The notes below the pieces were generated by a model, which was given only the letters and a program-made list of their open reading frames with translations, did not search any database and was not told the origin of the DNA. Below, piece after piece: positions 3,637 to 11,691 of a DNA stretch of 38,573 bases. Source of the stretch: a bacterium. GTDB lineage: Bacteria; Patescibacteriota; Minisyncoccia; Phycocordibacterales; GWA1-40-21. Made by a program: the position numbers and the translations under genes. Each line of letters starts with the position of its first letter. Position 1 is the stretch's first letter. The stretch lies in assembly GCA_037147155.1 (NCBI GenBank), contig JBAWVR010000002.1:1-38573 (forward strand), given 5' to 3'.

Positions 3637-4164
3637 ATGTTTTCCGATCCCCAGAAAATTATTGACCAACTTTCATTAGCACCAGGACAAACGGTGTTGG
3701 ACTTTGGTGCTGGCTCTGGTCACTATACTCTAATTGCTGCACAAAAAGTTGGAGCTGGCGGTCGTATCTATGCGATTGATATTCAGACTGATCTACTCAG
3801 ACGTATTATAGGTATGGTAGCGGAAAAGGGTTTGATGAACACCAGTATTATCACTGCCGATCTCGAAAAAACTCAAAGTACCAACTTAAAACCAGGTCTA
3901 GCCGATTGGGCTTTTGTTGCCAACCTGTTGTTTATGCTTAAAGATAAGAAAAATATTTTGTCCGAAGCTTTTCGTTTACTGAAACCAAACGGTCGTTTAC
4001 TTATTGTAGATTGGAAGGAGTCTTTTAATGGACTCGGACCACAGTCAGAACAGGTGATAAAAGAGGCTGAAGTTAGACAATTGGCCGAACAAATTGGTTT
4101 TATTGTCCAGTCAAATATTGAGGCTGGCGAACATCATTATGGTTTAATATTTAAAAAACAATGA
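3637..4164 (+). CDS. class I SAM-dependent methyltransferase
   Basis: Motif I VLDFGAGSGHYT, then IYAIDI and LLKPNGRLLIVDW. The track start at 3550 lies inside the gyrA terminator hairpin, so the in-frame ATG at 3637 is preferred. An extended -10 (tggtataat) sits at about 3600. Confidence 0.75.
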   Translation: MFSDPQKIIDQLSLAPGQTVLDFGAGSGHYTLIAAQKVGAGGRIYAIDIQTDLLRRIIGMVAEKGLMNTSIITADLEKTQSTNLKPGLADWAFVANLLFMLKDKKNILSEAFRLLKPNGRLLIVDWKESFNGLGPQSEQVIKEAEVRQLAEQIGFIVQSNIEAGEHHYGLIFKKQ

Positions 4165-5459
4165 AAGCATTTCAAATAATTTTATTAGGCTTTTTTGTGG
4201 CTCTAGCCATTGCCGGTTTAGTGGCTTTTGCAATGTTTCGTGGAGGTAGTCAGCAGGCTTCAACTATTACAGTTTGGGGAATGGTGCCTAATGAATCAAT
4301 TGATAAAATTCTCGGCGAATTACGTTCTAGTCGCAATGGAGCCGTGAACATGACTTACATTTACAAAGATCCAGCTGTTTTTGATAGCGATTTGTTAAAC
4401 GCTATCGCTAGTGGTAAAAGTCCGGATGCGGTCATTCTACCGAATGATTTGATTTATCGTTATTCTGATAAAATAATTCCTGTCCCATATTCTAATCTTA
4501 GTGAAAGTGATTTTAGAGATACTTATGTAGACATGGCTTCAGTTTATCTAACAACTAATGGAATTTTGGCTTTACCGATTAGTGTTGATCCGTTGATTAT
4601 GTATTGGAATAGAGATATTTTTAATACCACAGGGAAAACTAATCCACCAGCCTATTGGGATGAATTACAAGCTATGGTACCGGATTTTGTAGTTAAAAAT
4701 GCTAGCAAGGACATTATGCGCTCAGGTGTCGCTTTTGGAGAATTTAGAAATGTTACACATCCCAAGGAACTCTTGACTCTGCTTATGATGCAAGCAGGCA
4801 GTCGTATGGTGGAGAATAATGCAGGTTATTACACTGCTAATCTAGACGAATCAACTACCGGTAGTGGTGTTTACCCAGCTAGTGCCGCTTTTAGATACTA
4901 CAGCGACTTTGCTGATCCAAATAAAATTGTCTATAGTTGGAATCGTTCTTTGAAGAATGATAAACAAACATTTATCGCAGGAGATTTGGCTGTTTATTTT
5001 GGTTTAGCTTCGGAATACAATGAGATAGCAGCCAAGAACCCTAATTTGAATTTTGGTATTTCCTCAGTTCCACAAAAACGTGATGCGCGTATTTTTATAA
5101 CAGATGGTTTGATGAATGGTTTTTCTATTTTGAAAGGAAGTGCCAATCCGTCCAACGCCCTCACTCAGATTACGAAAATTTTGGCACCAGATGTTTTGCA
5201 GTACTGGGTAGATTACGGAAAAATAGTTCCAGCTAGACGAGATATGTTAGCTACGACCAATAGTGATAATATTTTAAAAGTTTTATCATACCGTTCTGCT
5301 CTGTCAGCCAAAACCTGGATGGACCCAGATGGCAAAGAGACTGATAGAATATTTCAGCAGTCCATCGAATCAATATCCACTGGAAAAAATTATGTCTATG
5401 AAGCAATTGCTGATTTAAATGGCGGTATTAACTTATTATTAGCTAAATATAAAAAGTAA
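4161..5459 (+). CDS. membrane-anchored extracellular solute-binding-protein-like protein
   Basis: 432 aa with an N-terminal TM helix. Overall resemblance to family-1 periplasmic sugar-binding proteins. Its start overlaps the upstream stop (ATGA). No ABC permease or ATPase gene lies nearby. Confidence 0.5.
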   Translation: MKAFQIILLGFFVALAIAGLVAFAMFRGGSQQASTITVWGMVPNESIDKILGELRSSRNGAVNMTYIYKDPAVFDSDLLNAIASGKSPDAVILPNDLIYRYSDKIIPVPYSNLSESDFRDTYVDMASVYLTTNGILALPISVDPLIMYWNRDIFNTTGKTNPPAYWDELQAMVPDFVVKNASKDIMRSGVAFGEFRNVTHPKELLTLLMMQAGSRMVENNAGYYTANLDESTTGSGVYPASAAFRYYSDFADPNKIVYSWNRSLKNDKQTFIAGDLAVYFGLASEYNEIAAKNPNLNFGISSVPQKRDARIFITDGLMNGFSILKGSANPSNALTQITKILAPDVLQYWVDYGKIVPARRDMLATTNSDNILKVLSYRSALSAKTWMDPDGKETDRIFQQSIESISTGKNYVYEAIADLNGGINLLLAKYKK

Positions 5460-5908
5460 TGAAGAAATATTTATTAACATCTTTTTTGATTTCAATCTTT
5501 TTTGTTACTTCTGTTGGCCCAGTTTTTGCTCAGAGTGAATTGCCATCCAAACCCGTTACACCCAGCAGTTTTAGTGGCCTAGTAAATTGCGGCAACAAGA
5601 TTGTGAATGGCAAAATCGATCCGTCGGACCAATGTACTTTTGATAAGTTGGTGGAAATGTTTAAATATATAATGAAGTACGCTCTATGGCTGATTATGCT
5701 GGCTATGGTCGGAGTCTTTGTTTTTATGGGCTTTATGTATATCAAATCGCAGGGTAGTTCTGCTGAAGTTAAAAAAGCCTGGGATATGATGAAAAAAATG
5801 GCCATCGGTGTATTTTGGATGCTATGTGCCTGGATTATTGTTTATACAATTTTATCTCAATTGGGTAATGATAAGACAAATATTTTGAGATTTTTTAGCA
5901 AACCATAA
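5459..5908 (+). CDS. T4SS-pilin-like (TrbC/VirB2-type) small membrane protein, paralog 1
   Basis: Signal peptide ending VFAQS, then two TM helices separated by a short basic loop (YIKSQGSSAEVKKAWD). The start overlaps the upstream stop (TAATG). Confidence 0.6.
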   Translation: MKKYLLTSFLISIFFVTSVGPVFAQSELPSKPVTPSSFSGLVNCGNKIVNGKIDPSDQCTFDKLVEMFKYIMKYALWLIMLAMVGVFVFMGFMYIKSQGSSAEVKKAWDMMKKMAIGVFWMLCAWIIVYTILSQLGNDKTNILRFFSKP

Positions 5909-5934
5909 TAATTAAACATAAATTAATAACAAAT

Positions 5935-6270
5935 ATGAAAAAAATATTATTTATTTTACTTGCCTGGAGTCTGCCAATGTTTTTTGTTTTTGCTGCCAGT
6001 TCCGCCACTTTGGATAATCCATTAAAATGGGATACTTTGGAGGGGGCAGTGGCTGGTATTATGAGTGTGATTGTTAAAGTTGGTGCCATTGCTGTCATTC
6101 TAGCCTTTATTTGGGTAGGTTGGATGTATGTTAAGGCTCAGGGAGCACCAAAAGATATCGAGGCTGCACACAAGGCTTTTCAATACACAGTTATTGGCGC
6201 TTTGGTTTTATTAGGAGCTGATGTGATTGCTAATCTGATTGCTGGTACAGTCAAAACTATTCAAAAATAA
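5935..6270 (+). CDS. T4SS-pilin-like protein, paralog 2 (most canonical)
   Basis: Signal peptide; LDNPL motif; TM1; loop YVKAQGAPKDIEAAHKAF; TM2. This is the typical layout of CPR pilin-family proteins. Confidence 0.75.
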   Translation: MKKILFILLAWSLPMFFVFAASSATLDNPLKWDTLEGAVAGIMSVIVKVGAIAVILAFIWVGWMYVKAQGAPKDIEAAHKAFQYTVIGALVLLGADVIANLIAGTVKTIQK

Positions 6271-6272
6271 TT

Positions 6273-7061
6273 ATGAAAAAAACTACCCCAGCTTTATTGC
6301 TTTCTAGTCTGATTGTGGCACTTAGTCCGTTTGTGGCCTCAGCCTATTCTGCTACCAATATTAAAGATTTATTGCAGGGTACAGTGGATAATATTTTGAA
6401 ACCAGTTGTGGTAATTTTAATCGGTTTGGCAGTTTTGGCGACTCTTTGGAATGGTTTTAAGATTGTTAAAGAAAGCGGGGGTAAAGATATTGCCAAATAT
6501 CGCACAGCTTTAATTATGAGTATTATTGCTCTAGCCGTTATGGTTAGCTTCTGGGGAATTATTGGGATAATGCGTGATACTTTTGGTTTGACTCGTTCAG
6601 ATAGCGTACTTAATCGTTTGGGTAGTGGCTCTACAAATATTAACGGCCAGATAGTCTCTGGTTCGAATGCTCAGTTTACAGCCGGATCTGCAGAGTCAAT
6701 ATTTTTAAATAACTCTAGCCAAAATACCACTATTAAAAATAGTTATAGTTCAGGTGCTGGTACTATTGATGGAGCCGGTTTTGATACAAAGTCTATTGAC
6801 GGTGTGGGTGTAGTCCAAACAGCGGGTGCTAGTAGCGGTTCATTTCAAAGTATAGATGCAAATGGCAATATGATTAGTCCTCAGAATGATGCAATAAAAA
6901 CTGTTGGTGGTTCTGGTAATGCTAACTCTAATAATGATTCAGTAGTTAGTGATATGTATGGTAACCAGGGTGCAGGCTGGCAGGGCACTAAACAAGTAGA
7001 TACTTTCAATAATACTGTCGCCAAGCCAACCAATGGTTTTATTAATTGGATATTTAAGTAA
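6273..7061 (+). CDS. T4SS-pilin-like protein, paralog 3, with a long Ser/Gly/Asn-rich C-terminal extension
   Basis: Signal peptide, two TM helices and the loop KIVKESGGKDIAKYR, followed by about 150 aa of low-complexity tail. Confidence 0.6.
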   Translation: MKKTTPALLLSSLIVALSPFVASAYSATNIKDLLQGTVDNILKPVVVILIGLAVLATLWNGFKIVKESGGKDIAKYRTALIMSIIALAVMVSFWGIIGIMRDTFGLTRSDSVLNRLGSGSTNINGQIVSGSNAQFTAGSAESIFLNNSSQNTTIKNSYSSGAGTIDGAGFDTKSIDGVGVVQTAGASSGSFQSIDANGNMISPQNDAIKTVGGSGNANSNNDSVVSDMYGNQGAGWQGTKQVDTFNNTVAKPTNGFINWIFK

Positions 7062-7065
7062 AAGT

Positions 7066-7413
7066 ATGAAAAATATTTTACTAGCTTTTACAGTTTTGGC
7101 ACCAATATTTACTTTTGCAGCCAATCTAAAGACAGATTATTTGAGATCTTTTTTTGGCAGTGCCACAACCATCATTACAAGCTTAGCTGTTTTGGTAATT
7201 TCTATCACCGTTCTGTATTTGATATTAAGTGTGGTTTCTTTTATGAGAAATAATATGATTGATAAAGCCAAGAGGGCTGAGGCGGCTACGGGAATCTTGT
7301 GGAGTGTTATAGCTATTGCTGTTATGGTGTCTATTTGGGGTATAGTTTCAATTCTCCAGGGCATGTTTTTTAGTGATCTTTCTGGTCAGGTATTCAACGG
7401 TTCAATTAAATAA
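7066..7413 (+). CDS. T4SS-pilin-like protein, paralog 4
   Basis: The in-frame ATG at 7066 gives MKNILLAFTVL.. with a signal peptide. Two TM helices with a basic loop. Confidence 0.6.
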   Translation: MKNILLAFTVLAPIFTFAANLKTDYLRSFFGSATTIITSLAVLVISITVLYLILSVVSFMRNNMIDKAKRAEAATGILWSVIAIAVMVSIWGIVSILQGMFFSDLSGQVFNGSIK

Positions 7414-7650
7414 AAGGCATTAAACCTTACAAGTTCTGTACAACTTTCGTTTATTTTTAAGTAAAAGCTCAGGGCCTTACAAAGCTCTGAGTGTTCGTTA
7501 TTGTGATTGGGTTGTGGGTGTAAAGTAATATTTAAAGTTATCTACACCGCATCTTTTTTACTATTTGCTTTTTTGTATTTGATGATATAATTATAAGGTA
7601 AAAAGGTCATAGGTCAAAAATTATTAATAAATATTTTTACAAAATAAAAA

Positions 7651-8004
7651 ATGAAAAAAGTTTTAGCAATCAGTTTGTCATCAGTATTGCCATTTATGGC
7701 TTTAGCTGCCACACCAAGTACTCAGTATATTTCAACTTGGATTGAACAAATCCAAAGTATTATTAACAGTCTCGTTCCAGTATTGGTTGGTTTGTCCGTT
7801 CTATTCTTCATTTGGAGTATTTTCAAGTACATCAAATCTGATGATCCAAAGACCAAGGGCGACGCTGCAAAGGGAATGATGTGGGGTATTGTTTTCTTGG
7901 CTGTTATCGTTTCAGTTTGGGGATTGGTTGCATTATTGCAAAACATCTTCGGTGTTGATACTCGTGGTGTAAGTAATGTTCGAAACCTCGTACCTACAAA
8001 CTAA
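7651..8004 (+). CDS. T4SS-pilin-like protein, paralog 5
   Basis: Signal peptide (MALAATP), TM1, loop YIKSDDPKTKGDAAKG, TM2. Confidence 0.65.
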   Translation: MKKVLAISLSSVLPFMALAATPSTQYISTWIEQIQSIINSLVPVLVGLSVLFFIWSIFKYIKSDDPKTKGDAAKGMMWGIVFLAVIVSVWGLVALLQNIFGVDTRGVSNVRNLVPTN

Positions 8005-8013
8005 TTTAAGTTT

Positions 8014-8256
8014 ATGTCTGCTGACCTTTTAATTAACAAAATTTTAGAAAATATAATCAACCCGATGGTTTATTTTCTGATGGTTGTTGCTATTATTGTC
8101 TTTATTTGGGGATTAGTTCAATATATAAATAAAGAAGCACCGGCTGACAAACATAAAGAAGGTATCGATAAAATGATCTATGGAGCTATCGGTCTGACGA
8201 TTATGTTTTCAGCTCAGGGAATAATTCACATTTTGTTAGATTTTTTAGGTAGGTAG
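8014..8256 (+). CDS. T4SS-pilin-like protein, paralog 6, without an obvious signal peptide
   Basis: 80 aa with two TM helices and the loop YINKEAPADKHKEGIDK. Same core layout as paralogs 1-5. Confidence 0.5.
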   Translation: MSADLLINKILENIINPMVYFLMVVAIIVFIWGLVQYINKEAPADKHKEGIDKMIYGAIGLTIMFSAQGIIHILLDFLGR

Positions 8257-8797: not shown

Positions 8798-8960
8798 GCT
8801 TTTTCCTCCTGCTAGATGAAATTATGTCTGGAAAAATATATACCATCCGGTATATTTCTTTGAATCTTTCATTATAATAACATAGTGAAGATATAAAGTC
8901 AAAGACAAACAAAGAGGGGATTTGACTTTTTGGCCCAAATAAACGATAATTTAACCCAAT

Positions 8961-9041
8961 GCGCGAGTGGCGAAATTGGTACACGCACTTGCCTTAGGAG
9001 CAAGCGGGGCAACCCATGGAGGTTCAAATCCTCTCTCGCGC
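8961..9041 (+). tRNA. tRNA-Leu (anticodon TAG)
   Basis: Acceptor gcgcgag/ctcgcgc, anticodon loop cttagga, long variable arm, T-loop ttcaaat. No encoded CCA. Confidence 0.9.
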
Positions 9042-9078
9042 ACAAATTAAAATCCCCGAATGGGGATATTTTAATTTG
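9042..9078 (+). terminator. intrinsic terminator after tRNA-Leu(TAG)
   Basis: caaattaaaatcccc gaat ggggatattttaatttg. The stem can extend into the tRNA acceptor 3' strand and its downstream inverted copy. Confidence 0.8.
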
Positions 9079-9266
9079 TGCGCGAGAAACGAGCAATGGG
9101 AATTGCTCGTGTGAGGATTTGAAAGACGGAAGAATATTTTTAGTAAAAAATATTCTGAGTCGGGGTTGCGACCAGTTTTGGCTGACTGAGACAAAACTGA
9201 GTTGTGACCGAGTCCTCCTTATTCTGTCTCGAAGACGATCAGTAAATTATTCCTGACCGAGTCCTT
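9079..9266 (+). repeat. tRNA-matched trailing module, unit A
   Basis: tgcgcgaga + 25-nt hairpin + gaggatttgaa is the inverted tRNA-Leu 3' end. Then GAAAGACGG (9121), a hairpin with a tagtaa loop (9141), GAGtCGGGGTTGCG (9157), a second hairpin, GTGACC (9204), and tcctc pairing back. Tail: aattattcctgaccgagtcct. Confidence 0.7.
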
Positions 9267-9288
9267 TAAATGTGCTATTATTATCTCT

Positions 9289-10146
9289 ATGGAAAAGGAA
9301 CAATTAAGTAATACTGTTAAACAATTTAGTCCGGAATATCAGTCTACATTAGATGAGATTGATAAAATTTCAAACCTTTCACAGGAAGAGCAGGGAAAAT
9401 ACATTAATGAAAGAATAAAAAAACTTTCTGATACTGCTGAAAAAGGAGAAATGTCGACAAGGGGTAAAAAAGTCTGCAATGGTTTTGTTGGTCCAGACAT
9501 GCTGATTCGAAGGAATATTCTTGTTGATCCAATTGTCTTAGATGACCCTTCTTTGTATCAAACCATGTTCGAAACCTTGAAGATGTTTAGAGGGGTTGAA
9601 CACATGAAAGATAAAACCCTGAGACAATTACATATAGGGCTTATTCAGTGGACGATTTCGAAATATTTCGGTAACGAGATCCCGTATAAGGAAACAGAAA
9701 CTGAAAATCGGAATTTTTATATGGAGCGAAGTGGGGCAGATAGCCCGGAAATATCAATATCTGAGCTTAAGGGCAAGGGGTTTGCGGTTTGTGCAGAAAA
9801 AAGTTCTGTAGCCGAAAACCTTTTGGTTTTTTCTGGTCTCGAAGCAAAACTAGTAGTGTCCACCGAATGCCGCATTCCAGAAGAAGCTGAAGAGAGTGGA
9901 CACTATTATAATATTATTTTGGGACCAACCCAAAAGTTTATTTATGATCCGTCCAATCCTAAGTTGGTCACTAATAGTAATGGAAAATTGATCAATTATA
10001 ATCCAGCGATGTATCGGATTAGCGATGAGGATTATGAGAAGTTGATGAATGGAGGGGCGGTAACTGTAGTCCATGTGGACACGGAGGTGTCGGATGGTAT
10101 AGAAAAAAATATCGAAAGTCGACGAGTGTATGGTGGGGTAAAATAA
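9289..10146 (+). CDS. hypothetical protein, possibly with a transglutaminase-like cysteine peptidase fold
   Basis: 285-aa ORF. An ordered Cys..His..Asp pattern (GKGFAVCAEKSSVAENLL, SGHYYNII, YDPSNP) resembles the transglutaminase-core triad. This is a weak call from motif only. Confidence 0.6.
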   Translation: MEKEQLSNTVKQFSPEYQSTLDEIDKISNLSQEEQGKYINERIKKLSDTAEKGEMSTRGKKVCNGFVGPDMLIRRNILVDPIVLDDPSLYQTMFETLKMFRGVEHMKDKTLRQLHIGLIQWTISKYFGNEIPYKETETENRNFYMERSGADSPEISISELKGKGFAVCAEKSSVAENLLVFSGLEAKLVVSTECRIPEEAEESGHYYNIILGPTQKFIYDPSNPKLVTNSNGKLINYNPAMYRISDEDYEKLMNGGAVTVVHVDTEVSDGIEKNIESRRVYGGVK

Positions 10147-10272
10147 TCAAACTGGTATATAGTAAGTAATCGGTGATTAAATAGCAAAGTAAGCAACAAT
10201 GATTTCCAAAATAGAAGTGGCAATTTTCACCTTGCCTTTTCTCATTTTATTTGTTATTTTAATGTAGCAGAC

Positions 10273-10352
10273 AAAATATGCGCCCATACCCGCTCACTTG
10301 AAGACAGGTGCTTCGGGCAAGGCTCAGTTGGCTGATAGTGTTGGTAAAATAT
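10273..10352 (+). repeat. degenerate duplicate of the tRNA-Lys 5' portion with a 33-nt insertion
   Basis: aaaatatgcgcccata occurs at 10273 and again at 10346, the true tRNA start. The upstream copy continues, after the insert cccgctcacTTGAAGACAGGtgcttcgggcaag, with gctcagttgg (the D-arm sequence). Confidence 0.5.
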
Positions 10353-10425
10353 GCGCCCATAGCTCAGTTGGTAGAGCAGTCGCCTCTTAAGCGATTGGTC
10401 GTAGGTTCGAATCCTACTGGGCGCA
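10353..10425 (+). tRNA. tRNA-Lys (anticodon CTT)
   Basis: Acceptor gcgccca/tgggcgc, anticodon loop tcttaag context (cgcctcttaagcg), T-loop ttcgaat. No encoded CCA. Confidence 0.92.
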
Positions 10426-10479
10426 CATCATAAATATTAAAAACCACCAGCTGTCCCTGGTGGTTTTGTTTATGATGTG
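10426..10479 (+). terminator. long intrinsic terminator hairpin after tRNA-Lys
   Basis: Inner stem aaaccaccag/ctggtggttt plus outer stem cacatcataaa/tttatgatgtg, which starts in the last nucleotides of the tRNA. Confidence 0.8.
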
Positions 10480-10612
10480 CGAGCCGGAGTGCGACGGCAC
10501 GAGGCGGGGTCGCGGGTTTTTCTAGCAAGAAAAAACCTGTGACCACAATAAGTGTGCGCCCACAAAATTATTTTTCGAAGGAGAAAAGCGTACTCGCGGT
10601 CCTACCAGTTTT
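10480..10612 (+). repeat. tRNA-matched trailing module, unit B (divergent arms)
   Basis: GCCGGAG-tgc gacg gca-CGAGGCGGGGTCGCGG (10505), a hairpin with a tagcaa loop (10523), GTGACC (10539), then gtgtgcgccca (antisense of the tRNA-Lys acceptor end) and a tcctaccag T-arm-like copy. Confidence 0.6.
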
Positions 10613-10658
10613 ATTTAATGAGTACTTTTATTTCTGAATATTCTAGAATACGATTATT

Positions 10659-11279
10659 CTACCTTTTGAAATAATTATCAACGGTTGGTTCTAGGTCGGC
10701 AACTTCGTCTAATATTTTATAGTAGTTACCTTTCAAAAGAAAATCTTCTGAATGAAAACCCCAAGTTACAGCTATTGATCCAACACCAGCCTTTTCTGCT
10801 TCAATTAGATCACCGAGAGTGTCGGTAATAAATAAACAGTCTTCCTGCTTTAAATCATTATTGACCATTACCATCTTTATTTTTTCAACTTTACTTTTAT
10901 GTACATCATTACCAAGTATTTCACCAAAAAAGTGCCTTATATTATGCTTGGTCATAAAGTCACGAATAAGATCAGTTTTTGTAGATGAAATCACAACCAT
11001 TTTATATTTTTCAGATAGATTTTTAAGAGCGTCAGTCATCCCTGGAAAAACTTTTACGTCATTCAATAAACCTCTGCCGTATTCTATAAAATAATCAATT
11101 TCATGATTACACTTATCATCATGAACACTATGTTTTTCGAAATCATTAATATTTCCCGTAAAAAAGTTTTGGTAATTATCTATGGTTATATTTGGACAGG
11201 TTACTTTTTGCGCTATATAACCATTGTTCAGAGAGTCAGCGATCACACCGTCAAAATCAAATAAAACATACTTATTCAT
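10659..11279 (-). CDS. HAD-superfamily hydrolase (phosphatase-like)
   Basis: Motif I LFDFDGVIADS, motif II VISST, motif IV ITDTLGD. Confidence 0.8.
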   Translation of the reverse strand: MNKYVLFDFDGVIADSLNNGYIAQKVTCPNITIDNYQNFFTGNINDFEKHSVHDDKCNHEIDYFIEYGRGLLNDVKVFPGMTDALKNLSEKYKMVVISSTKTDLIRDFMTKHNIRHFFGEILGNDVHKSKVEKIKMVMVNNDLKQEDCLFITDTLGDLIEAEKAGVGSIAVTWGFHSEDFLLKGNYYKILDEVADLEPTVDNYFKR

Positions 11280-11323
11280 TCCAAAAGTATATCATAATTA
11301 CCCAGATGGCAGAAAGTTTTCCC

Positions 11324-11342
11324 TCGAGTCCCACCTCGGGCG
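11324..11342 (-). repeat. inverted copy of the tRNA-Leu(TAA) 3' end, with no full module
   Basis: The plus strand tcgagtcccacctcgggc equals the sense sequence of the minus-strand tRNA, giving an 18-nt inverted repeat across the terminator. It is followed only by gggaaaac before the HAD gene. Confidence 0.6.
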
Positions 11343-11344
11343 TC

Positions 11345-11372
11345 AAAAAAACACCTTACGGTGTTTATTTTG
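11345..11372 (-). terminator. intrinsic terminator after tRNA-Leu(TAA)
   Basis: aaacacc gtaa ggtgttt plus a T-run, read on the minus strand. Confidence 0.8.
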
Positions 11373-11455
11373 TGCCCGAGGTGGGACTCGAACCCACACG
11401 GCCTTACGACCCCGAGATTTTAAGTCTCGTACGGCTACCATTACGTCACTCGGGC
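11373..11455 (-). tRNA. tRNA-Leu (anticodon TAA)
   Basis: Minus strand gcccgagtgacgtaatggtag..gagacttaaaatctc..long variable arm..gggttcgagtcccacctcgggca. Confidence 0.9.
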
Positions 11456-11456
11456 A

Positions 11457-11593
11457 TTTTGGGGCCTTGCGGCCTGGGGTATCATCGGTCACAACTCTCC
11501 TTCACACCGTCGTGTTCGGTCGGTCGCGACCCCGCCTCGCGGCCGAACCTTGCTAGGTTCGGACTTCGTTCGCTGCGGCTTTCGATTCTCCCC
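11457..11593 (-). repeat. tRNA-matched trailing module, unit C (after tRNA-Cys)
   Basis: Minus strand reads ggggagaatcgaa (inverted Cys T-arm), AGCCGcAGCGAACGAAGTC, a hairpin with a tagcaa loop, CGAGGCGGGGTCGCGACC, a hairpin, GTGACC, then ccccaggcc (a direct copy of the tRNA 3' end). Confidence 0.65.
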
Positions 11594-11619
11594 AAAAAAT
11601 CGCTAACGCGATTTTTTTG
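11594..11619 (-). terminator. intrinsic terminator after tRNA-Cys
   Basis: aaaaaaatcgc gtta gcgatttttt on the minus strand. Confidence 0.8.
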
Positions 11620-11691
11620 AGGCCTGGGGGAGAATCGAACTCCCGCATATTCCTTTTGCAGAGGAATGCTTTACCACTTAGCAACCAGGCC
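11620..11691 (-). tRNA. tRNA-Cys (anticodon GCA)
   Basis: Minus strand ggcctgg..cctctgcaaaagg..gggagttcgattctcccccaggcct. Confidence 0.9.

Follow-up and report, generated by a model that had tools for sequence, protein, structure and literature searches.

What occupies the interval between tRNA-Leu(UAG) and the gene that starts at 9289, and to which of these two neighbours does it belong? In the window (the whole stretch of DNA that was analysed, 38,573 nucleotides from an ultra-small bacterium of the Patescibacteria, or CPR; coordinates are those of the window unless a locus number is given), a preliminary description made from the letters alone had treated 8961-9266 as a tRNA locus with a split inverted arm, followed by a short-form unit that could act as leader of an orphan gene. 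We read the interval as tRNA-Leu(UAG), a terminator, one complete module and one decayed half-copy of a module, with the module belonging to the tRNA.

Layout of the tRNA-Leu(UAG) locus

The motifs that had been listed for this locus were all found in their places (Table 1), and the short-form unit proved a genuine member of a tRNA-linked module family, the family covariance model (R1) matching 9113-9217 with 81.6 bits (E about 1e-23). The antisense copy, the core, P3 with its sense arm and the position on the tRNA strand are all present. The + strand of 9079-9266 folds as RNA with z = -5.2.

Table 1 Features of the tRNA-Leu(UAG) locus and of its downstream neighbour. P1, P2 and P3, paired regions of the module; R1, covariance model of the module family.
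Feature	Position	Strand	Basis or remark
tRNA-Leu promoter-like site, TTGACT-17-GATAAT	8922-8950	+	Ends 10 nt ahead of the tRNA 5' end
tRNA-Leu(UAG), CCA not encoded	8961-9043	+	ARAGORN; Rfam tRNA 58.2 bits
Intrinsic terminator, ATCCCC-GAAT-GGGGAT and T run	9052-9077	+	Stem-loop 9052-9067
Antisense arm, distal part	9079-9087	+	Complement of discriminator, acceptor 3' strand and first T-stem base
Arm hairpin, 25 nt (A, 9 bp, GGGA loop, GU), optional family domain	9088-9112	+	
Antisense arm, proximal part, 5' strand of P1	9113-9123	+	Complement of T-stem 3' strand and T-loop
Core module, three-way junction P1/P2/P3	9113-9217	+	R1 81.6 bits; covariation
Core 1, GAAAGACGG (junction AAA and GAC of P2 base)	9121-9129	+	
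P2 hairpin, UAGUAA loop	9130-9156	+	Paired strands 9131-9141/9146-9156
Core 2, GAGTCGGGGTTGCG (GUC of P2 base, junction GGG, P3 5' strand)	9157-9170	+	
P3 hairpin, closed by GUUGCGAC/GUUGUGAC, including the near-invariant G-U pair of the family (G9168-U9205)	9165-9208	+	
Sense arm S1: CGAGTCCTC, 9-nt insert, TCTCG	9209-9231	+	
"Tail", decayed half-module: P3-like remnant, AATTATTCCTGACC, second sense arm	9219-9265	+	
Promoter-like site CTGACC-17-TATTAT with TG extension	9253-9281	+	Consensus match only; predicted start about 9288 (leaderless)
285-aa gene, uncharacterised family with a probable transglutaminase-like fold (Cys-His-Asp)	9289-10146	+	Neighbour of the module, outside it

The module starts 36 nt 3' of tRNA-Leu(UAG), on the same strand. 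The terminator of the tRNA is the apex of a long palindrome in which 9023-9053 pairs with 9068-9092. The two parts of the antisense arm, tgcgcgaga (9079-9087) and gaggatttgaa (9113-9123), together form the exact reverse complement of 9023-9042 (20 of 20 nt); this copy is broken once, by an A, the nine base pairs acgagcaat/attgctcgt with loop ggga, and GT. On the sense side GTGACC begins at 9204, its GTGAC running directly into CGAGTCCTC, which pairs with 9113-9121 through two G-U pairs, while TCTCG pairs with 9083-9087. Compared with the family core, 9121-9129/9157-9170 carries one C-to-T change, by which a C-G pair becomes U-G; P2 is identical to the P2 of the second Tyr module at 24 of 27 nt. 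Upstream of the tRNA-Leu locus, at 5459-8256, several small genes whose products have T4SS-pilin-like domains (PF18895) stand in a row; dprA and topA are also in the window.

The string TGACCGAGTCCT is present twice, at 9205-9216 and 9254-9265. The likeness of the tail to the junction motif of the Trp and Tyr loci, pointed out beforehand, holds: AATTATTYCTGAY is the 3' strand of one P3 type with a sense arm, and one of the common kinds of P3 has AATTAT(T/C)C(C/T)TGAC as its 3' strand. Since the tail thus joins a P3-like remnant, a P3 3' strand and a second sense arm, it is a half-module. Half-modules also stand behind the Leu(CAA) and second Trp modules in the window, and one is found in L066; they are rare otherwise (6 of 117).

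The copies at this locus differ in age. tRNA-Leu(UAG) and the antisense arm carry A57/A59, both sense copies carry G57/G59, and G59 is found in the tRNA-Leu(UAG) of six of six relatives; this pattern suggests that the antisense partner followed the tRNA and that the sense copies retain an older state, with pairing kept as G-U. Across the family the two arms agree with their tRNA at 8.4 and 8.5 of 10 positions, about equal tracking. When one of the arms deviates from the tRNA, a mismatch results in 145 cases and a G-U pair in 41, so that the arms look templated from the tRNA and not kept by compensatory change. A 635-nt contig from another freshwater lake sample (X4) matches 9069-9216 apart from two differences, after which its sequence (GTATCCATCC...) is unrelated to the window; this points to a region past the first sense arm that is variable between close strains. 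This divergence looks like a strain-level breakpoint at the module end.

A family of modules behind tRNA genes

Loci were collected by scanning species-representative genomes for two core motifs (119 loci, 121 matches); among the titles listed, about two thirds were Patescibacteria or unclassified MAGs, the rest being chance matches in other phyla. Sixty-six of the 121 matches lie at most 400 nt downstream of a same-strand tRNA. Because the core motifs were part of the collecting pattern, conservation of the core is partly built in; helices and arms lie outside the pattern. From 24 curated modules a skeleton structure was derived (P1, P2 base, inner P2 stem, P3), with 93% of cells paired and 13 pairs changed on both sides. 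None of 500 shuffles equalled the skeleton fold, and slid registers were also far worse. In this fold the closing helix P1 consists of the antisense tRNA 3' end, which spans T54 through the discriminator, and a sense copy that begins at C56; the P2 base carries a G-A motif; the core motifs GAAAGNCGG and GAGNCNGGRTYG form the GNC/GN'C base and the P3 5' strand; P3 is closed by GUCG/YGAC, after which the sense tRNA copy follows directly from C56.

R1 matched 127 modules in 92 sources. Eighty of these start at most 120 nt from a same-strand tRNA or tmRNA, a further 16 start within 400 nt as tandem copies (96 of 127 in total), and 12 lie at locus edges; the leftover orphan modules often have a tRNA-like sense arm or stand behind a tRNA remnant. 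The covariance-model search that had been proposed for this locus returned the unit as one of eight modules in the window, all on the tRNA strand and behind six tRNAs (six of the eight outside the training set). Every complete tRNA of the window except Leu(UAA) has the same arrangement downstream on its own strand: terminator, antisense tail, GAAAGNCGG, hairpin, GAGNCNGGRTCG, second hairpin, YTGAC, sense tail. When a strict criterion is applied, 33 of 80 first modules follow their tRNA with no terminator intervening. In distant relatives the Leu(UAG) site is empty, decayed or filled, and sense arms of relatives repeat the tRNA as far as one base beyond the discriminator.

The fold is strand-specific. 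Over the 127 modules G-T pairs outnumber A-C pairs by 212:44, and one P3 pair is G-U in 120 of 126 modules; the fold is thus that of a single strand, the tRNA-sense one, rather than of a symmetric DNA cruciform. Judged by these pair counts, the folded form may equally be RNA or single-stranded DNA.

The split of the antisense arm had been said to correspond in position to that of the Trp locus, which was borne out to the nucleotide: in both, a 25-nt hairpin of the same design interrupts the arm directly behind base 1 of the T-stem complement. Well-preserved split arms have an insert of 24-25 nt that leaves 11 nt (four cases) or 12 nt (two cases) on the core side, so that it follows base 1 or 2 of the T-stem complement, one or two positions in from the acceptor/T-stem boundary. 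About 25 distinct hairpins from many lineages consist of A, 9 bp, a 4-nt loop (mostly CUGC) and G(U); all nine pairs covary and pairing is 100%, in examples that were selected for at least eight of nine pairs. Hairpins of the type CAAAC-NN-YUUUG in the collected loci lie nearly all within module arms. The Leu(UAG) hairpin is of a minor subtype, AU-GGGW-AU, also present in L015 and L047, and its sense strand, with the 9-nt insert, is atypical; hairpin-bearing relatives have a continuous sense strand, by which P1 and hairpin would reproduce the coaxial acceptor/T-stem stack with a side arm near the tRNA branch point. By its sequence and placement, the insert is a fixed-position domain of the family, optional and family-wide, and not a random interruption.

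Rfam 15 at gathering threshold returned only tRNAs and noise for the whole window, and Rfam with E up to 10 returned no match besides tRNA and noise for 8900-9300. Rfam 15 and full-text literature searches returned nothing resembling a tRNA-tail module. A metagenome scan for GAGGATTTGAAAGACGG gave three real modules among 120, none of them a close relative of Leu(UAG), the rest being mostly chance 17-mers. The modules form an undescribed, protein-less, Patescibacteria-wide family.

Several deviating arrangements were recorded. Modules lacking an upstream tRNA are found at L017 328-425, L025 3903-4003, L013 702-1000, L107 and L015, and in several of these the sense arm is still a perfect copy of a tRNA-like 3' end. 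Simplified modules form arrays in a non-tRNA context in L107 (apparently 3' of a coding region) and L015, and one variant module among examples of this type is a four-way junction. L013, a Saccharibacteria locus, also contains a LOOT RNA (RF03000, 64.5 bits) at 3852-3985. The Lys module of the window (10471-10550) has GAGCCGGAG as first core instead of GAAAGACGGAG and no P2 hairpin, as is similarly seen in L072 and L095. Upstream of it, 10273-10352 contains AAAATATGCGCCCATA (promoter-proximal bases and first 9 nt of tRNA-Lys(CUU)) twice, about 73 nt apart, with a decayed D-arm-like GGCTCAGTTGG between the copies. This is a pseudo 5' fragment that closely precedes the real tRNA-Lys gene. Behind tRNA-Leu(UAA) lie a terminator and 18 nt antisense to the 3' end of this tRNA (11320-11372, - strand), with no R1 match, which indicates that an antisense arm is able to exist without a core.

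The gene at 9289 and the leader proposal

The gene at 9289 had been called an orphan, and a word-based protein search indeed found the query alone; full HMMER overturned this, with at least 315 homologous clusters (315 with E of 1e-3 or below, of which 63 reach 1e-30 or below), usually 280-300 aa in length. H205 is invariant in the family and C168 and D220 are at least 90% conserved. Some members have weak Pfam matches to DUF553 and Transglut_core. The AF2 model reached pLDDT 94.4 with 30 homologues (38.6 for the single-sequence model), and the PDB structures nearest in fold, none of them a strong match (E 0.04 or worse), were a transglutaminase, arylamine N-acetyltransferases and a putative cysteine protease. 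On this modelling the protein probably has a transglutaminase-like fold.

Whether the homologues are always linked to a tRNA or a module, as the preliminary description had asked, was checked for six of them, and they are not: none of the six has a module, two start 4 and 20 nt past a tRNA 3' end, and four are not tRNA-linked. Contigs with an identical 9289 protein are 100% identical to the window and give no comparative signal. In relatives, the tRNAs Cys, Leu(UAA), Lys(CUU) and Leu(UAG) lie in a tight cluster (L008 4470-5324, L036, L079, L091); in the window (8961-11691) the same four are separated by the 9289 gene and a HAD hydrolase gene, and the cluster is partly inverted. A copy of the tRNA-Leu tail downstream of 9289, as a cassette boundary mark, was looked for and not found. 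With about even confidence, we take the 9289 gene for a separate and variable gene that was inserted into a long-standing cluster of tRNAs.

It had further been proposed that the unit serves as 5' leader or riboregulator of this gene through read-through from the tRNA. The gene is co-oriented, its ATG following the tail at 9245-9265 by 23 nt; no terminator lies between module and ATG, and two homologues start just behind a tRNA. Against this arrangement, the terminator lies between tRNA and module, a close variant contig (X4) departs after 9216, and the homologues examined have no module. By crude ORF calls, a module is followed next by a co-oriented ORF 53 times, by a convergent ORF 31 times, by a tRNA 8 times and by another module 12 times. 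Of the 84 scored modules with a flanking gene, 31 (about 37%) thus face a convergent ORF. In the window, the Lys and Trp modules face convergent genes.

The tail moreover provides a promoter-like site of its own. This site, CTGACC-17-TGcTATTAT with an extended -10 element, ends 7 nt before the ATG, and the start predicted from it, about 9288, lies past 9266; a start downstream of 9266 was what the preliminary description had named as speaking against a leader, here present as a prediction. In the few loci inspected for TGAC as a -35 element the sense arm follows it, and the tail copy alone has a well-spaced -10 box. Most genes of the window have AT-rich upstream regions lacking a Shine-Dalgarno sequence, several with a -10-like box 20-30 nt before the start; as Shine-Dalgarno sequences are rare in the window, their absence at 9289 is uninformative. 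The gene is probably transcribed from a promoter in which the CTGACC of the half-module would be the -35 box. None of the RNA runs searched contained the window, same-sample metatranscriptomes gave zero coverage of it, and groundwater metatranscriptomes mapped on L016 gave zero coverage as well. From predicted sites and comparison, the leader proposal is unsupported, and we regard it as very improbable.

Origin and possible role of the modules

We favour, with a probability of about 0.5, an insertion- or duplication-derived cassette that sits on the T-loop-to-3'-end segment of the tRNA gene and of which the folded sense strand is the active form. This reading is favoured by the templated arms, the sense copies through the discriminator, stacking with relics, filled and empty sites and the shuffled P2 and P3 types. 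New units would be laid down beside the tRNA, and older units would be pushed outward and decay, the tail at Leu(UAG) being such a relic. The active form would be the single strand in its folded state, for which the simplest candidate is a trailer RNA made by read-through from the tRNA. In this RNA the antisense arm could clamp the 3' strand of the tRNA, so that the terminator hairpin grows to about 45 bp, or else pair with the sense arm and thereby close the junction. In the most stable fold predicted for a read-through transcript (8961-9270; -133.6 kcal/mol, z = -10) the antisense arm is paired, via the terminator, with the 3' strand of the tRNA, and the arm hairpin branches off to the side; the T-stem 5' strand, left without its partner, pairs with the sense arm. 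With the module alone folding as three-way junction and the read-through as tRNA clamp, the antisense arm has two partners, in any copy of the family.

Among about 28 larger ORFs of the 38.6-kb window, Pfam detected no recombinase, transposase or reverse transcriptase; the ORFs with Pfam matches are housekeeping genes. A clean filled/empty pair among close relatives that would fix the insertion boundaries was not found in the examined loci. The cassette reading leaves without account how arms matching each different tRNA are acquired, and a core kept so alike in distant lineages fits a cellular function no less well than a selfish element.

A functional cellular RNA programmed for its own tRNA, acting in cis or trans as guide, decoy or clamp on the 3' half, is the main rival, which we consider somewhat unlikely; it might mark or rescue read-through precursors, present an RNase III or RNase P/Z site by means of a helix resembling the acceptor/T-arm stack, or recruit a protein via the G-A core. 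Distant CPR lineages share the junction, its conserved unpaired purines and the near-invariant G-U pair, the module invariably lies on the strand of the tRNA, and the first modules that lack an intervening terminator would be co-transcribed with the tRNA; P1 with the arm hairpin mimics the acceptor/T-stem stack, its side arm one base inside the tRNA branch position, and the antisense arm at Leu(UAG) has followed the T-loop change of its tRNA. Set against this are arms whose complementarity is not kept by compensatory change and which are decayed in many modules, the existence of half-modules, tandem stacks and tRNA-less orphans, relatives with no module at the same tRNA, and the zero RNA coverage in the datasets searched. 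The modules could also be a functionless by-product of repair or replication, in which a template switch at the terminator hairpin extends the palindrome and slippage duplicates the tail. The perfect antisense copy, starting exactly where the terminator palindrome would run on, the coreless antisense copy at tRNA-Leu(UAA) and arms that track the tRNA and not each other suit such an origin, which could still hold for the antisense arm alone; as an account of the whole it is improbable, since it leaves unexplained a conserved core with covarying helices that recurs at over 100 loci from many lineages, and also the fixed geometry of the 25-nt arm hairpin.

A further-reaching reading, which we consider somewhat unlikely, is a base-pair-programmed system that has no protein gene: a conserved three-way-junction nucleic acid, RNA or folded single-stranded DNA, that recognises the 3' end of one tRNA, or of its gene, through its antisense and sense arms, either as self-targeting cassette or as tRNA-specific guide. 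The former would insert units at tRNA ends and stack them there, now and then together with a gene such as 9289; the latter would control maturation or integrity of its tRNA. The optional arm hairpin might be a docking site for an unknown partner.

Of the known systems, integrative elements that target tRNA genes (tyrosine-integrase islands, prophages and their integrase-less remnants stacked at attL/attR) share with the modules the direct T-loop-to-discriminator repeat downstream of an intact tRNA, tandem stacking with outer relics, occupied tmRNA genes and a variable gene past the repeat. When the locus was compared with an attL/attR pair, the direct repeat was present, with S1 and S2 partly decayed and relatives exact through the discriminator. 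Unlike such elements, module units measure about 100-190 bp with no integrase nearby, add an inverted copy and a strand-specific three-way-junction core, occur with matching arms at dozens of tRNAs and have no T-stem dyad beside the sense arm. Integron attC sites and the CTX-phage attP hairpin likewise have a strand-specific fold with a stem that recreates the target duplex, structure conserved over sequence, and cassette-like stacking with occasional genes; the modules differ in lacking R/L boxes and an integron integrase, in having the end of a tRNA gene as anchor and in the RNA-like G-A and G-U motifs of their core. Correia, BOX and REP/BIME elements are similarly small, protein-less, hairpin-rich and numerous per genome, and may donate promoter boxes (as CTGACC here); unlike the modules, they have fixed termini, no arms copied from a neighbour and no tie to tRNA 3' ends. 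The t-elements of plant mitochondria, mascRNA and T-box RNAs resemble the modules in an acceptor/T-arm-like helix and a specific tRNA link, but the module has no T-loop, specifier codon, T-box sequence or Rfam match and lies downstream of the tRNA, not ahead of an aminoacyl-tRNA synthetase gene.

Further candidates were tried and set aside: a T-box leader (no Rfam T-box match with E up to 10, a position downstream of the tRNA, and a gene for a probable transglutaminase-fold protein next to it); hammerhead and other Rfam ribozymes (no match; on manual mapping the junction strands AAA, GGG and none misfit the hammerhead); a retroviral primer-binding site (no TGG to pair with CCA); a retron or bridge RNA (no reverse transcriptase or IS110-type recombinase gene nearby); and K-turn or box C/D layouts (no fit on manual mapping). 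The design of an antisense and a sense tail of the neighbouring tRNA around a conserved junction is absent from the catalogued systems searched.

For annotation, if the family is what it seems, the modules would mean false ORFs called over them, "orphan" calls that can be wrong and promoters possibly donated to neighbours. The Leu(UAG) locus adds the fixed-position 25-nt arm hairpin, a sense arm with an older T-loop state and a relic that possibly supplies a promoter. If the reading given here is true, most tRNA genes of a large and poorly understood bacterial radiation would be shadowed by a folded element that carries their tail in both orientations, which would bear on how bacteria with tiny genomes process or police their tRNAs, and on base-pair targeting by non-coding cassettes that have no enzyme gene of their own.
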